64,000 bases of DNA from Elusimicrobiota bacterium (GTDB lineage: Bacteria > Elusimicrobiota > Elusimicrobia > UBA1565 > JACRDR01), in contig JBGFSC010000007.1 of NCBI GenBank assembly GCA_041694815.1, forward strand, positions 32,001 through 96,000, read 5' to 3'. Positions within the stretch are counted from its first letter, which is position 1. Each line of letters opens with the position of its first letter. Position numbers: made by a program. Positions 30,001 through 36,000 of the stretch are shown piece after piece.

Positions 30001-33000
30001 CCTCAAAGGAGAGGTCGCCTCCGGAGAAACTACGAAAACCAAGCGGCTGCAGATGGGCTCCAGGAGATCGATGATCCAGTGTAGAATCGGCCTCCCTAAT
30101 ACCGGATATAGAATCTTGGGACCGCGCGTCCCTAGGCGGGTCCCATTTCCTGCCGCCGGTACAATAGCGGTCCATTGAAGTGCTAATTCGGGTCCGCGCG
30201 CTTGGGGCACGCCATCAATATCATAGACTCGGCGCATGCGGCACGTCTTCCACCATCATCCGTTACAAAGTATAGCATACGGGGCTGCCGACGCCTCTCA
30301 CCGATCGACACCCGCCGCCTTCAGGCGGCGGATAATGAGGGTTCCCGCGAAGCGGTTGCCAGCGCTGTTCCAGTGGTCGTCGTTAGCGATATAGAATTCC
30401 CTCGCGCTCGATTTCCGGAACTCTGGCAGAAGATCGTAGCAATCCAGTCCGTTTGTCCGACAGAATTTTAAGAAAAGATCCTGGGCGATGCTTTCCTTCA
30501 ATATCTTCGGCCCAAGATGATAGCCTAGACCCGACAAGAAGGGATGGTGCGAACGGTTGACCTGCGCAGTCGCGGGGAAGATATGGACCAGCAGTCGGAC
30601 GTTTCTTTCTTTACACCAGTCGCTGATCCGCAGGATGATCTTCTGGTTTTTTTCCCATGCCGCACGCGACTCATGATCGTTTAGGGCGACATTATTCATG
30701 ATCCATTCCGGCCTGGCGCCGCCCAGCCCCAAAAAGGGATTGGCCGCATGACGGACTTCTGGATGCTCCCTTAATACTCGCTCTTTCGCGTCGGCCAACC
30801 ACCTTCTCTCGCGCCACGCGCGATAGCGCTCCCGAAAGACGCCGGTGATAAAAAGCCTCGTCCCGCCCTCCTCACCCATGGCCGCCTCGAATTCGGCCGG
30901 CATCGTCCGATAACGAGTATCGGTCAAATCGGTGGCAACGGCATAATTCAACAAGACCGTCTGCGGAGCGAAAAGATCTCCGTAGAGGCGCAGCACTTTC
31001 AAATAGTCGACCGGCCGCATGCCACCTTTGGCCAGGTTCAACATAGCGACACCTTGCGCCGAAAAATAGTCTTCCAATAAACGATTGAGCTCGCCCTGGT
31101 CGTTGATGAAGGAGTCGCCCAAAACGAGCACCCGCCTCGGTTGCTTCCGCAAAATGGACGCCCGATAAAAACCACTGGAAACCAGACCCAAACGGCAGCA
31201 CAATTCGGTGATACCGATCGCTACGGCTAATGAAATAAAAACTAGGAGGACTACTTTTTTCACGAAGGAACCTCGGCGCACCGCGAAAACGCTAGGGTCA
31301 GGCAGTCCTTGAACCTGCGACCACCCAGTTACGACCGAGCCTGGCCCGATTAGACTGATTTTACAAATAAATATTAGGCATATCGTCAACGGCCCGCCGC
31401 GCTCGCAGCTGGTTATGCCCGCGGCAGAGAAGGCGGATGTTGCCGGCGTGCCGGGAGGTGCCGCCGAGGGCCCAGGGGATGATGTGGTCGAATTCAAGGC
31501 CTTCGCGCTCGGGGCAGCGGCTGCCGTCGGCCAAGACCTGGACGCATCTGGCGCCGTCACGCAGCCACACCTCGTCCTTGACCCTCTGCGGGATGCGGCG
31601 GCTCGGCTCGGCGAGGGCCCGCTCGACGGGAATGCGCTCCAGGGCTTTTTCCTGCATCGCCCGGCGTTCGGGGTCCCTCTTGGCGAGGAAGAGCTCGAGC
31701 AGCTCGTCCATGAGATCCTCGAAGCCTAGGCGGTAAAATTTGTGCCCGAGAAGCTCTTGGACCCTTCTTAGCTTTTGCAGTAGCCGGGCGTCCGCCGTGA
31801 AACCGAAGCATACGCGCTCGGGCCACAGGGGGCCGACCTCATTTCGTTGGAGGGCCGTTCTTCCGGGCATCCCCATTAATACGAATGAACGCCGAAAAAG
31901 TTCCGCTCATCGGTCGGGTATCGGGTCGTCCAGGACATAAATTGCCCCTGGAAAGGCATGCCGGCTATGATTGCAGACCTGCGCGATCTGCTTGTCCTTC
32001 GTTACGATCAGGACATTGTCTTTTCCGTGAATGTTCGCTAAATCCCGGCCCATGGCGATGACGAGCGCGTCGAGGCCGCTCAGGAAACCGTGCTTCTCAT
32101 TGCCGAAGCGAGCATACTCTAGTTCGAAGACGTCCTCGACGTCGACCAAATGAGGGCGCGTGAGTTCATAGGAGCGGATCAAGCCTTTGTTGGCCCTGGA
32201 GACTACGTTAAGCAGCGCGCCGACATAGCTCCTGTAGATCGAGGTCGCTCTTACATGATCCTTGGTCCCTCGGTAGGCGACCTTAGCGAAGACCTTGGAA
32301 CACTCAGCCATGCAGAAGTTCGGCACGTAGAGATTGGCCCGCCTTTGGCCTCCAAGTTCGAGCAACTTGAGCACGGCCAGTCGCACCCGCAAGGTGAGAC
32401 CAGGGTCTTTTACAGGAATAAAGGCCGGCACCAATGCCGACGCGTCAATCAAGAAATGACGCACCGCGACCTACTTCAGGGCTTCTTTCAGTTCGCGGGA
32501 GGTAAGAGGTTTCTCGCTGAGAGGCGGAAGGGAATCGATAGTCTCGACCACCTTTTTAACACGGGGGCTGAGTTTCTTCCAGCCCTTCTCCCCGTGCTCT
32601 TCTTTGTAGATTTGCTTTAGGGTCATCCCGCCTCCCCTCAAGTATGAGCTATTTTACCAAAAATGCAAGAGGGCCCTGGCGCTTGGGCCACAGGGGGCCA
32701 ACATCATTTCGTTGGAGGGCCGTTCTTCCGGGCACCCCTATTAATACGAACTAGGGCGAAAAAAGTTCCGTGAAAAAACGAGCTGCGCCGGGCAGGACTT
32801 GAACCTGCGACCACCCCGTTATGCCTCTCACTCCGGGCTTTCCCCGGCCGCAGCGCGTTGTGAGCTGGACTATGTCATGTCCCGCGAGGGGACCCGGGCG
32901 TATAGTCTCTGAACCTTTCCGCTGTGTCAGCGGACTTGGCTGCCGATCGTCCAATCCCAGGATTTTTTGGCCGTCGCGCCTGCCGTCGCCGGCTACGCTG

Positions 33001-36000
33001 TGGCGTCCTGGGCTCTCAGGAGATCCCGGCAATTTGCCCGGTTATCCACTGCCGATTGCTCGGCAAGGAGCCCAACTTGAGCGGGGCGCTCTAACCCACT
33101 GAGCTACCGGCGCATCAAAAGTATTCTACTACTTCCAGCCTTTTAAATGGCAAAGACGGCAACCACGACCTTTGCTTCGATTACTGATATTCGCATAAGT
33201 AATAGATCATTTAAGGCAGGCCTCGGAAGCTTGGTGCCCATGATAGATACCCACTCTGCCGTGACGCTCATGCTGGCGACCGGATAAGCTCTAAATAGGA
33301 TAGCTGCAATTTAAACTTGAGCGAAACAGCTGCTTTGAAAATCGCTTCGCCAACGATCGGACAAATTCGGCTTCCCGTCCCTGTGGAACGCCCACGATAA
33401 CCATAACATGAAAGACTTCTTTGGTGCCAGGGTTCCGGAGCTGCGCGGCATGATTGAAGTCGATAATGCCCTTAAAGGATATTTCAGGAACAGAAGCGAC
33501 AAGAGATATGGCATTAGCTTTAGTCGCCTCGGTATCTGCTGGGGTACTGCCAACCAGCGAGGGACCTTTAAAAGTCAAAACTACGATGCCAGGAGTGAAC
33601 TCTTTGCATCCCAGGTCCAAGGTCGGCCCCTGTTCCTGTGAAAAAGCAGCCGAAGCAAACAACGCGACCACTAAGAATGCGCCGTAATTTATCTGAACCA
33701 TTTCCTCTCCGTGTAAGTCTCACAGCCTGCAGGAGTAGTATTAACTCTATTAGGCAATTACCACATGGGCCGCAAGGCCTAATTCTTGCAAGTCTTTGGG
33801 CCCAGATGCACGGACCCAGAGGGCCTAGTGATCCGCCCAGATTTAACTTGGAAGTGCAACCGGCGAGAGCGGATGCCGCGATGACGTCGGCCGCGCTGGA
33901 GCGCAGGAATATCCATCGATCACTGCGCCTGCTTGGCGAGAAAGTCGGAATTGCCTCTAATTGACCTGCTCGAGCGCTCTCCTAATAATAGGATACCGAG
34001 CAGGTAGGCTTGGACTGGGTCAGCGACCCTCGAAACGGCGAGCCGCTTCCAGGAAAGCGGCGAAGCTCGCCTGGAACAGCTCCTCGCCGTCGGCCTTGGA
34101 CAGACCCGGCCCGAGATCGTCTCCGTTCGTTTTCCTTGAAGATTTCTTACAATATAGGTATCGATCGACATGAAGGCTAGATTCTGGATTGTAACACTTG
34201 CAGGCCGCGGCCGGCAGTGTAATGTTCGGCGCCTCCCGCGCACTCATCCGCGAGGGAGGAAAAAGACCATGCCGAGAACAATACGCTGGGGGATGGCATT
34301 GGCGCTAGTATTCACGGCCGTTCTGCTAGGGGTTCATTGGATGGAGGCTTCGATGAAGACAGAAAAGACGAGCAAGGAAGAGCTGCGTAATCGCCTCACT
34401 CCCGAGCAGTACCGAGTCACGCAGGAAGACGGCACGGAGCCGCCGTTTAAGAACGCCTACTGGGACAATCACGAGGAAGGCCTCTACGTTGACGTAGTCT
34501 CGGGGGAGCCGTTGTTTAGCTCCAAGGACAAGTTCGACTCCGGCACCGGCTGGCCGAGCTTCACGCGCCCCGTTGAAGAGGGCGGCACGGTGCTCAAGAC
34601 CGACCGCACGCTCTGGATGACGCGCACCGAGGTCCGCTCGAGGAAGGCCGACTCGCATCTGGGCCATGTCTTCGATGACGGCCCGGCCCCTACCGGCAAG
34701 CGCTACTGCATCAATTCTGCGGCGTTGCGCTTTATCCCCGCCTCTAGGCTCGAGGCCGAGGGCTACGGGCGCTACTCCAAGCTCTTCGAGCGCAAGGCCG
34801 CCTCCGCCCAGACCCAGAAGGCGGTCTTCGCCGCCGGCTGCTTCTGGGGCGTGGAGGACGCCTTCAGCAAGGTGCCCGGGGTGCTGCGCACCCGCGTGGG
34901 CTACACCGGCGGGACGGTGAAGGACCCAAGCTATGAGATGGTCTGCTCGGGCAAGACCGGGCACGCGGAGGCCGTCGAGGTGGAGTTCGACCCCGCCCAG
35001 GTTTCCTATAACCGCCTCGTCGAGGTGTTTTGGAAGATCCACGATCCCACCACGCCCAACCGCCAGGGCCCCGACGTGGGCCACCAGTACCGCTCGGCCA
35101 TCTTCACGCGCGGCCCCGAGCAGCACAAGGAGGCCCTGGCCTCCCGCGAGCTCTTGGCCCGCTCGGGCAAGCTGCGCCGCGAGATCGTCACCGAGATCGC
35201 CCCGGCCTCGGAGTTCTATCCGGCCGAGGACTATCACCAGCAGTACTACAAGAAGCGCGGCGGCAAGTCCTGCCGTATATTCTAAGCTGACGCCGCTAAT
35301 TCTCACGGTGCCAGGGATTGACTTTCGCCTAGGCGAAAGTCAATCCCTGGCACCATCATTACGGGAGTGATGACATCGCATTGACAATTCCGTGCATATA
35401 GTGCTACGTTTCTTAAATCCATTTTGTCATGCGCCAGTTCGCTCTACTACTTCTGTTGCTGCTCCTGGCCCCCGACGCGCGGGCGACCTGGAGCTTTTTA
35501 GGCGACGCCAACCTCTTCCTCGGCCAATATTATTTCGACCGCAGCGCCGGCTCGCTCAACGGCTTTACCGACCTGAATTTCCAGCAGTCCAAGAGCTTCT
35601 CGCCCTCCTCGGGATTCTTCATCAGCGAGCGCTCGATCTACTCGGGGTTCAAGCAGGTCAACGAGCTGGCCGGAGGCGGCACGCTGTTCCAGCAGAGCCT
35701 CGACAACTCCATCGGCGTCAAGTATATCCATCGCTTCGAGGGCGGCTATAGCCTAAAGCCCCGCATCGGGGTGCGCAACCAGCTTTTCCGAGAAACCGTT
35801 GACGAGGATTGGACCAAGGGACTCTACGATTTCTGGCGCTACGAGACCGGCATCACCTGGGAACGAAAGACCCGGCTAGGCTTGTCGATCCCTTGGACCT
35901 ACCAGCTCTCCTACGACGCCTACTACACCAATTACACGCACTTTAAATCCCTCGCCGCGCAGGCCGCCCAGCTGGGCGCCGCCCTCGGTGTGGCTCCCAA

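Follow-up and report, generated by a model that had tools for sequence, protein, structure and literature searches.

Does a stretch of DNA in which no tRNA is called by standard means contain a working tRNA gene split by a ribozyme and, if so, which codon depends on it? The window, i.e., the whole 64-kb stretch that was analysed (64,000 nucleotides of an Elusimicrobiota genome), yields no tRNA in a default ARAGORN run. When introns are allowed, the program reports, at window positions 32782-33114, a tRNA interrupted by a 256-nt intron, setting the junction after A36 and labelling the product Leu(caa). The genome-wide survey's note had instead described a group I intron of that length that separates U33 from C34 in a tRNA(CAU) gene, and both the RF00028 match and the alignment of orthologues agree with this description. 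The first three bases of the intron differ among eight orthologues (CAA, TAA, TGA), whereas the CAT that opens the 3′ exon and the G preceding it are invariant, which fixes the junctions at U33|C34. Although ARAGORN with introns allowed gives this gene a wrong label (Leu, Arg or Phe) in five of the eight genomes, exons joined by script are read as tRNA(cat) in all eight, with scores from 119.7 to 127.4; the joined tRNA(cat), with U-1 and omega-G, had been claimed for the genome under study and is seen in every orthologue. The acceptor stem is GCGCCGG/CCGGCGC, and no CCA is encoded at the 3′ end of the gene. The start (33113) and the intron borders given by the survey stand, but its end at 32780 runs four bases past the discriminator, and the gene ends at 32784. 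A consensus scan detected no full promoter or terminator. The features of the locus are listed in the table.

Table. Features of the split tRNA(CAU) locus and of the downstream islet (window positions).
Feature	Position	Strand	Evidence
tRNA(CAU) gene, most likely tRNA-Ile2, G1 to discriminator A73	32784..33113	-	ARAGORN, introns allowed; joined exons give tRNA(cat), score 127.4
5′ exon, tRNA nt 1-33, U33 last	33080..33113	-	...GCT invariant and next three bases variable in alignment of eight orthologues
Group I intron, 256 nt; final base 32824 is omega-G	32824..33079	-	RF00028, 46.1 bits; P1-P9 covariation; G before CAT in 8/8
3′ exon, opens with anticodon C34 A35 U36	32784..32823	-	CATAAC invariant in 8/8 genes
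P1: exon G31-C32-U33 with intron GGC, and 1-2 further inner pairs within the intron; wobble U33·G at 5′ splice site	33070..33082	-	G-C, C-G and U·G each in 8/8
P2, GNAA tetraloop (GCAA in the genome under study)	33049..33066	-	Both-side changes in 4/7 pairs
P3 (33041-33036 with 32899-32894)	32894..33041	-	3/6 pairs compensatory, 100% paired
P4 (33032-33026 with 32946-32940), around J4/5, P5 and J5/4	32940..33032	-	96.4% of cells paired
P5 and ~66-nt P5 extension (P5a-d, GCGA loop, A-rich bulge), internal loops nearly invariant	32950..33021	-	P5a 5/7 compensatory; distal part invariant
P6/P6a	32914..32939	-	P6a: 4/7 pairs compensatory
P7 (32909-32902 with 32873-32867, bulged A 32908), around P3 3′ strand and P8 (32893-32879)	32867..32909	-	Invariant, 100% paired
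P9 three-way junction: P9, P9a, P9b; P9b loop GAAA (GAAAG in the genome under study)	32827..32864	-	Fold of eight genes
TAGAAT, -10-like hexamer, possible promoter element, ends 10 nt upstream of mature 5′ end	33123..33128	-	T, A, A, T invariant in 4/4 aligned upstream regions
Islet cargo between gene and remnant	31361..32641	-	Three ORFs
Islet ORF, 56 aa, no Pfam family	32471-32641	-	ORF and Pfam search
Islet ORF, 185 aa, no Pfam family	31907-32464	-	ORF and Pfam search
Islet ORF, 171 aa, HNH (PF01844)	31361-31876	-	Pfam search, 23.6 bits, cut-off 21.4
Degenerate intronless remnant of same tRNA, anticodon loop to T arm, 1.45 kb downstream, far end of small inserted islet	31301..31333	-	BLAST, among other evidence

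The RF00028 match spans window positions 32847-33103 on the minus strand and the full model (1-253), and scores 46.1 bits, the gathering value being 50 (E 6.9e-10 in the window search); it is the sole match in the genome when the latter is searched as a whole (E 1.5e-10). The score just under the gathering value is the one already reported by the survey, and the shortfall of 3.9 bits arises because cmscan treats the P5 insertion as an insert; the orthologue in G151 reaches 57.1 bits, above the cut-off. A hand-drawn P1-P9 fold of 80 pairs was evaluated in eight orthologous genes, that of the genome under study and seven from other Elusimicrobiota species. Pairs form in 97.3% of the cells and 23 of the 80 pairs have changed on both sides, a number reached by none of 500 shuffles; slid controls are 30-45% paired with at most 6 both-side changes. 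Three marks expected of a group I intron are present, namely compensated helices P1-P9 with the P3/P7 pseudoknot (two of the five P8 pairs are compensatory), a P1 with a U·G wobble and a terminal intron G. All eight genes have retained the U-1·G wobble as well as the omega-G, and the tetraloops GNAA (L2) and GAAA (L9) are conserved among the orthologues. By analogy with known group I architecture, P7 is presumed to be the guanosine-binding helix. A point on the other side is that P10 is weak in the alignment of orthologues, with one to three possible, unconserved pairs. The P5 extension motif is shared with three non-tRNA group I introns (L115, L162 and L117) and, among the 69 loci L021-L089, occurs only in the eight that carry this CAU gene. 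Judged by this pattern of sequence change, the intron is real and under selection. The term compact, used in the earlier description, does not suit it, as its 256 nt exceed both the 205-nt Azoarcus intron and the tRNA introns of 183-200 nt, and the P5 extension is present. No homing endonuclease reading frame exists within the 256 nt.

The identity of the split tRNA has to be sought outside the anticodon. CAU sits here on a non-initiator body, which has G1-C72 but neither A11-U24 nor G12-C23, the marks of fMet, and the acceptor stem carries G3-C70, C4-G69 and C5-G68. In the passages of Silva et al. 2006 (PMC1635315) that deal with these positions, G3/C70 rule out Met and fMet and point to Ile(CAT), and C4-G69/C5-G68 occur very often in Ile(CAT). 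The genome encodes TilS (TIGR02432, 181.5 bits against a cut-off of 93.6, C15:71417-71983), and the only other isoleucine tRNA that ARAGORN finds in it is GAU, with no UAU tRNA. The remaining CAU calls are an initiator on C25 (C1xA72, A11-U24), a 3′-half copy of this initiator with an unrelated 5′ half on C54, and a second elongator-type CAU tRNA on C20, which is the same inventory that the survey had given. The survey held Met and Ile2 to be inseparable by sequence; the acceptor marks and tilS favour Ile2, and the most likely identity of the split tRNA is tRNA-Ile2, with a C34 that TilS would convert to lysidine, rather than elongator tRNA-Met. The reverse assignment, in which the interrupted gene encodes elongator tRNA-Met and C20 is tRNA-Ile2, seems unlikely. 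ARAGORN labels every CAU tRNA Met, and the same paper, where it treats the separation of the two classes, regards it as hard in some groups, in which determinants co-evolve. Moreover, G027, G058 and G220, three of the eight orthologues, carry C3-G70, the usual Met pair, and therefore some members of the family lack the strongest Ile2 mark. Against this, the G3-C70 reported there as excluding Met and fMet is found in the other five, including the genome under study; C4-G69 is found in all eight and, like G3-C70, also in the genome's own tRNA-Ile(GAU); and C20 combines G4-C69 with the Met-like pairs G2-C71 and C3-G70.

A second question concerns the age of the insertion, which had been presented as a recent gain in the lineage of the genome under study. 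Most relatives do have an uninterrupted gene, as the survey observed (e.g., at G008:C8:6548-6625), and within the order the intron is absent from 94 of 101 genomes. However, a recent gain is improbable given where the intron occurs and how far its copies have diverged. It is present in seven genomes of the order, from three families, and in one genome of another order (G151), i.e., in four families and two orders; the copies are 75-95% identical to one another, and the nearest to that of the genome under study reaches only 82%. In addition, the identity between introns rises and falls with that between RNase P RNAs (r = 0.76, 28 pairs), with the exception of the pair G004-G235 (introns 88.5% identical, RNase P RNA 70.5%), and the intron tree pairs the genome under study with G151 (support 87/90). 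The divergence, the multi-order spread, the tracking of RNase P RNA and the tree therefore indicate an old history with losses, lateral moves, or both. The related claim of a first group I intron in Elusimicrobiota holds as a statement on papers, since the searchable literature contains no earlier one on group I introns in this phylum, but it fails for genomes: of 151 genomes sampled from the phylum, 20 have an RF00028 match above the cut-off, and split-tRNA calls come from 17 of the 20 best loci. The element is real but of a familiar bacterial kind, common in the phylum; in bacteria at large, 5292 tRNA group I introns in 21 tRNA/site types have been catalogued (Williams 2020, preprint).

Whether splicing matters to the cell depends on the existence of another copy. 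A genome-wide BLAST search with the gene retrieved only the gene itself and a 31-nt remnant (54-contig draft, 97.8% complete), so that BLAST and the CAU inventory bear out the claim that one of the two non-initiator CAU tRNAs has no other assembled copy. In a crude ORF set, AUA amounts to 4.9 per 1000 codons (11% of Ile codons) and occurs in 1223 of the 1442 ORFs of at least 250 codons. With no second copy assembled and AUA in so many long ORFs, splicing should be needed. Taken together, we consider it probable that the split gene is the genome's single tRNA-Ile2(CAU) gene, which reads AUA after lysidine formation by TilS and carries a 256-nt group I ribozyme at U33/C34. That the intron might be a dead insertion in a pseudogene, with a working Ile2 gene in the unassembled part, is a far-fetched alternative: the incompleteness of the draft and the Rfam score below cut-off would allow it, but compensatory changes keep every helix in eight species, the exons are foldable in all eight genes, and none of the eight genomes, when searched as a whole, yielded an intact second copy; five of them have only a 5′-truncated remnant. 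The tRNA-Leu(CAA) with the junction after A36 that ARAGORN outputs for the genome under study and G004 is refuted by the orthologue alignment and has next to no chance of being right. Its intron would end in U instead of G, five of eight orthologues have TAA or TGA in place of the ‘CAA’, and the variable arm has 5 nt where Leu tRNAs have a long one. Moreover, C36 carries a proper tRNA-Leu(caa), and in other genomes the program wrongly calls this gene Arg or Phe.

For the preferred reading, a tRNA-Ile2 matured by a ribozyme, the splicing steps can be proposed by analogy with characterised group I introns. In the precursor, exon G31-C32-U33 would pair with intron GGC to form P1, with U33·G as the wobble pair at the 5′ splice site, and a free guanosine held in P7 would attack after U33. 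The terminal intron G (32824) would then occupy the same site, and the 3′-OH of U33 would attack before C34, joining the exons into a 74-nt tRNA and releasing the intron. The CUCAUAA anticodon loop would arise only upon splicing, and therefore lysidine formation, t6A37 and charging by IleRS would have to follow it; the CCA, which is not encoded, must be added. The intron, devoid of an endonuclease, has persisted for long among Elusimicrobiota and has probably moved laterally.

A separate observation concerns the region downstream. In five of the eight intron-bearing genes, an intronless, 5′-truncated copy of the same tRNA lies 1.4-4.3 kb downstream, across an islet, and such a duplicate is found in only ~4 of the 42 intronless relatives that gave any match. 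As a point against the preferred reading, G235 and G236 have a nearly full-length intronless copy downstream, with identity from nt 3-4; 2-3 bases of the 5′ acceptor strand are missing in both, U8 is changed to C in one, and from these sequence defects the copies are inferred to be inactive. It is conceivable, albeit with a low likelihood, that the intron and tRNA-targeting integrative elements interact at this gene. On one hand, the intron at U33/C34 may split the anticodon stem-loop, the core site of such integrases, so that an element already integrated would lose the ability to excise and would decay where it sits, and the gene would be closed to new integration. On the other hand, elements whose att site covers nearly the whole tRNA may supply an intron-bearing copy, ferrying an endonuclease-less intron between hosts. 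Both readings fit the pattern of remnants, and these recurrent intronless remnants are the only part of the locus that could lead somewhere new.

As for its wider meaning, the split gene corrects an annotation gap, as standard tRNA finders miss it and leave the genome apparently without an AUA decoder. By the above analogy, it would represent a natural case in which a ribozyme is required for one sense codon to be decoded and lysidine formation is forced to follow splicing. In addition, the gene and its orthologues supply eight sequences that covary, from a GC-rich ribozyme whose P5 extension is conserved.

Among known systems, the cyanobacterial tRNA-fMet intron (fMet.2Ug, subgroup IC3; Williams 2020) occupies the same site after U33 in a CUCAUAA loop and has the same U-1 and omega-G; compared by type name and position numbering, the host tRNA here differs in being a non-initiator (G1-C72, no A11-U24) and in belonging to another phylum. 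The Azoarcus intron sits within the anticodon loop of what is probably the same tRNA species and is self-splicing, and the comparison fits the weak P10 seen here; however, by description, it lies after U36 (position 5) and not after U33 (position 2), and at 205 nt it is 51 nt shorter, the excess here being due to the conserved P5 extension. Other tRNA group I introns, from Elusimicrobiota, CPR bacteria and Proteobacteria, are likewise RF00028 matches inside tRNA genes (ARAGORN: Asn GTT, Thr TGT, Tyr, Leu TAA and others), and an exact 18-mer in J6/7-P7 is common to 48 loci, 37 of them with split-tRNA calls, but the BLAST likeness is confined to the P4′-P8 core (query 167-248) and none of them has the P5 extension motif. 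The classical tRNA introns (Williams 2020) agree in P2 with GNAA, P9 with GAAA and the tRNA setting, the long P5 extension lying outside this fit. An Ile2 gene with its intron after U33 may represent a tRNA/site combination not yet listed.

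The tRNA(CAU) gene on the minus strand of the window is interrupted between U33 and C34 by a 256-nt group I intron, as the genome-wide survey's note had proposed, and the alignment of eight interrupted CAU genes (A2) bears out this placement in 8/8 genes. By default, ARAGORN calls no tRNA gene in the window. The Rfam group I model RF00028 matches 32847-33103 over its full length at 46.1 bits (cut-off 50; E 6.9e-10), and in a search of the whole genome this intron was its sole match (E 1.5e-10). With introns allowed, ARAGORN reports an interrupted tRNA whose intron is 256 nt long, but sets the junction after A36 and labels the gene Leu(caa). 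The sequence around the junctions, ...GCT CAA GTT...GAGAGG CAT AAC..., accommodates an intron of this length at four adjacent junctions, three of which give CAU and one CAA. Across A2, the bases 3′ of GCT vary (CAA, TAA or TGA); the CAT opening the 3′ exon and the G preceding it are invariant. Since U33|C34 is the only junction that obeys the group I rule of a U at -1 and a G as the last intron base, and does so in all eight genes, it fixes the exon and intron coordinates. Once joined by script at this junction, the exons are called tRNA(cat) by ARAGORN in every one of the eight genes (scores 119.7-127.4). A scan of 32600-33400 for a consensus promoter and terminator found none, and a look-up of sequencing runs of any kind for 32600-33300 came back empty. 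The labels that ARAGORN gives to the split gene (Leu(caa), Arg(ccg or tcg), Phe(gaa)) were rejected as wrong in 5/8 genomes (loci considered: L001-L004, L054, L079, L088, L089), the reason being that the program does not apply the U-1/omega-G rule; intron-aware automated tRNA calls in Elusimicrobiota need checking.

Features of the interrupted gene and its surroundings in this genome (G000, window positions) and in the comparison genomes (other G numbers; f, family; g, genus; L, locus)
Feature	Genome	Position	Strand	Evidence or remarks
tRNA(CAU) gene split by a group I intron	G000	33113-32784	-	RF00028 match; ARAGORN with introns; eight-gene alignment
5′ exon	G000	33113-33080	-	Alignment of eight genes
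Group I intron, 256 nt	G000	33079-32824	-	Alignment of eight genes; U-1/last-G rule
P5 extension, ~66 nt	G000	33021-32950		Internal loops almost invariant
3′ exon	G000	32823-32784	-	Alignment of eight genes
Islet	G000	31301-32641	-	1.45 kb, directly downstream of the tRNA gene
Degenerate intronless tRNA copy, anticodon loop to T arm	G000	31333-31301	-	Far end of the islet
Interrupted ortholog	G004			f1, family of G000
Interrupted ortholog	G027			f3
Interrupted orthologs	G058, G220			f2, g11
Interrupted orthologs	G235, G236			f2, g23
Interrupted ortholog	G151			f8, different order within the same class
Remnant, from 5′ strand of anticodon stem onward	G027 (L090)	1.9 kb downstream		Cargo: SLFN_AlbA_2/HATPase_c_4 gene
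Remnant, diverged allele, from anticodon stem	G220 (L202)	1.6 kb downstream		Cargo: Fic gene
Remnant, nt 3-76, U8 changed to C	G235 (L200)	1.9 kb downstream		Cargo: Fic gene
Remnant, nt 4-76	G236 (L201)	4.3 kb downstream		Cargo: tyrosine integrase (L201:2929-3933; 110.5 bits), HTH_17 protein

Helices P1-P9 of the intron were drawn by hand on the sequence of this genome and their pairs then counted on A2, where 97.3% of 632 cells hold standard pairs and 23 of the 80 pairs show two-sided change. None of 500 shuffles matched the observed paired fraction, two-sided-change counts or covariation score, while the count of further pair types was unremarkable against the same shuffles (127/500); sliding the partners by 1-3 columns left 30-45% paired and at most six pairs with two-sided change. 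P1 is formed by exon G31-C32-U33 with intron GGC, so the last anticodon-stem pair must open, and its U·G wobble is present in 8/8 genes. P7, with a bulged A, is invariant across A2, L2 is GNAA and L9 is GAAA (GAAAG in this genome). In P10, which is weak, 1-3 pairs could form, none of them conserved. Both the length of the intron and its depressed Rfam score are due to the P5 extension, whose motif was found, among 69 loci (L021-L089, with L040 and L079 denoting one place), only in the eight that hold this CAU gene. The group I intron in this gene is judged to be real and kept up by selection.

The host gene of the intron is, most likely, the genome's sole gene for tRNA-Ile2. Among the other CAU calls, the one on contig C25 is the initiator (C1xA72, A11-U24, G12-C23), and that on C20 is of the elongator type. 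The call on C54 is a copy of the 3′ half of the initiator with an unrelated 5′ half. This ARAGORN tRNA-Met (G000:C54:94489-94564), identical to the C25 initiator in its 3′ half and with broken stems, probably represents a displaced piece of tRNA gene at the end of an island. The genome encodes tilS (181.5 bits, cut-off 93.6) and has GAU as its only other isoleucine tRNA; therefore, either the C20 tRNA or the interrupted gene on contig C48 must be Ile2. According to Silva et al. 2006 (PMC1635315), a tRNA with G3 or C70 is neither Met nor fMet and points to Ile(CAT), which very frequently has C4-G69/C5-G68. The interrupted gene has G3-C70, C4-G69 and C5-G68, the first two of which it shares with the tRNA-Ile(GAU) of the same genome, and the C20 tRNA has G2-C71, C3-G70 and G4-C69. 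Judged by these acceptor-stem marks, there is a good likelihood that the C48 gene is Ile2 and C20 is Met, with the caveat that the orthologs of G027, G058 and G220 have C3-G70. When E. coli genomes were searched by BLAST with the 44-nt 3′ exon, the three matches were all to tRNA-Lys, all weak (E 2) and of no help in naming the tRNA.

No second copy of the gene was found by genome-wide BLAST beyond a 31-nt remnant. In a crude ORF set chosen by GC3, AUA is found in 1223/1442 ORFs of at least 250 codons; it is used 4.9 times per 1000 codons and makes up 11% of those for Ile. For this assembly, it can be soundly inferred that translation would rely on the ribozyme.

A search covering relatives, order-level genomes and one genome per species found seven orthologous interrupted genes besides that of G000. 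In the order, the intron is present in 7/101 genomes (f1, 1/5 plus G000; f3, 1/17; f2, 4/78), and outside it the intron was found in G151. The copies are 75-95% identical, the RNase P RNAs of the same genomes 56-97%, and the two identities correlate (r = 0.76, 28 pairs). For G004 and G235, the introns are 88.5% identical and the RNase P RNAs only 70.5%, and in the intron tree G000 groups with G151 (support 87/90). This spread and divergence speak against the recent gain postulated in the survey's note; in our reading the intron has long been present in the clade and was lost many times, moved laterally in some cases, or both. Besides its main RNase P RNA gene, G004 shows another, weaker match (L099, G004:C15:34113-34405; 92.6 bits, cut-off 100).

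Downstream of the interrupted gene, the islet carries ORFs of 56, 185 and 171 aa, the last an HNH endonuclease; no Pfam family was found in the other two. The tRNA remnant at its far end has four extra bases exactly at the intron position of the gene. The same pattern of islet and remnant, 1.6-4.3 kb downstream, is seen in four more intron-bearing genomes (G027, G220, G235, G236); the G235 and G236 copies lack only their first 2-3 bases, and 5/5 remnants are intronless. No remnant lies within 8 kb downstream in G058 and G151, and the G004 contig stops 2.2 kb past the gene. Duplicates occur in about four (G002, G035, G044, G049) of the 42 intronless relatives giving any match. G044, which belongs to the genus of G235 and G236 but lacks the intron, has the uninterrupted gene behind the same 5′ flank; two identical complete copies lie on two contigs (L203, L204), whose downstream regions are in part paralogous (~80% identity across 750 nt). 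Two complete CAU tRNA genes lie within 1.3 kb of each other in G049 (L009, G049:C11), and in G002 the 5′ exon has three matches at ~1.3 kb spacing on one contig (G002:C96:26665-29368); these repeats may be tRNA arrays or scars of repeated integration. Downstream of 17 further intron-bearing tRNA genes in the phylum, a single exon repeat of 17 nt was found (L028), the flank of only ~1.45 kb being too short for a fair test. A regenerated gene plus displaced fragment is what islands in tRNA genes normally leave behind (PMC4383910). That fragments are in excess where the gene bears the intron, and that none of them contains it, is a lead, not a result, given the small counts and the relatedness of the genomes. 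A partnership between intron and HNH gene was rejected: tblastn with the six flanking proteins of G000 detected no homologue around the interrupted genes of the other seven genomes (flanks 0.2-3.4 kb), which makes the HNH gene part of the islet cargo and not a conserved partner.

The P5-extension motif (19 specified bases) also matches at least 100 metagenome stretches; of 80 examined, six were similar to the intron by BLAST, and RF00028 was found in the same six when 20 of the 80 were searched with Rfam. The remaining matches, which look unrelated, were left aside. Three metagenomic group I introns with the motif (L115, L162, L117) were not placed in tRNAs by ARAGORN; their P4-P5 extension-P6 module is nearly base-for-base that of this intron. 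By eye, the sequence 3′ of the L117 core resembles the start of a putative GIY-YIG endonuclease.

No paper was found to combine 'group I intron' with 'Elusimicrobia', and one of the papers that mention both Elusimicrobia and self-splicing deals, in the matching passage, with CPR rRNA introns. The kind of intron is already well known and common in its phylum. Among 151 sampled phylum genomes, RF00028 matches in 29 at E ≤0.001 and in 20 above the cut-off, and 17 of the 20 best loci have split-tRNA calls (Asn in eight, Thr in three, Tyr in two, and one each of Phe, Asp, Leu and Arg, the Arg-labelled locus being the CAU gene of G151). Moreover, exact copies of the J6/7-P7 18-mer are present in the genomes of 48 species (CPR bacteria, Proteobacteria and Elusimicrobiota), 37 of them with split-tRNA calls. 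Williams 2020 (bioRxiv 10.1101/2020.01.27.920355) extended the four classical types (Leu.3Ug, Arg.5Ug, fMet.2Ug and Ile2.5Ug) to 21 types and 5292 introns, and in that notation the present intron would be Ile2.2Ug, with the insertion site of the cyanobacterial fMet intron and the tRNA species of the Azoarcus one.
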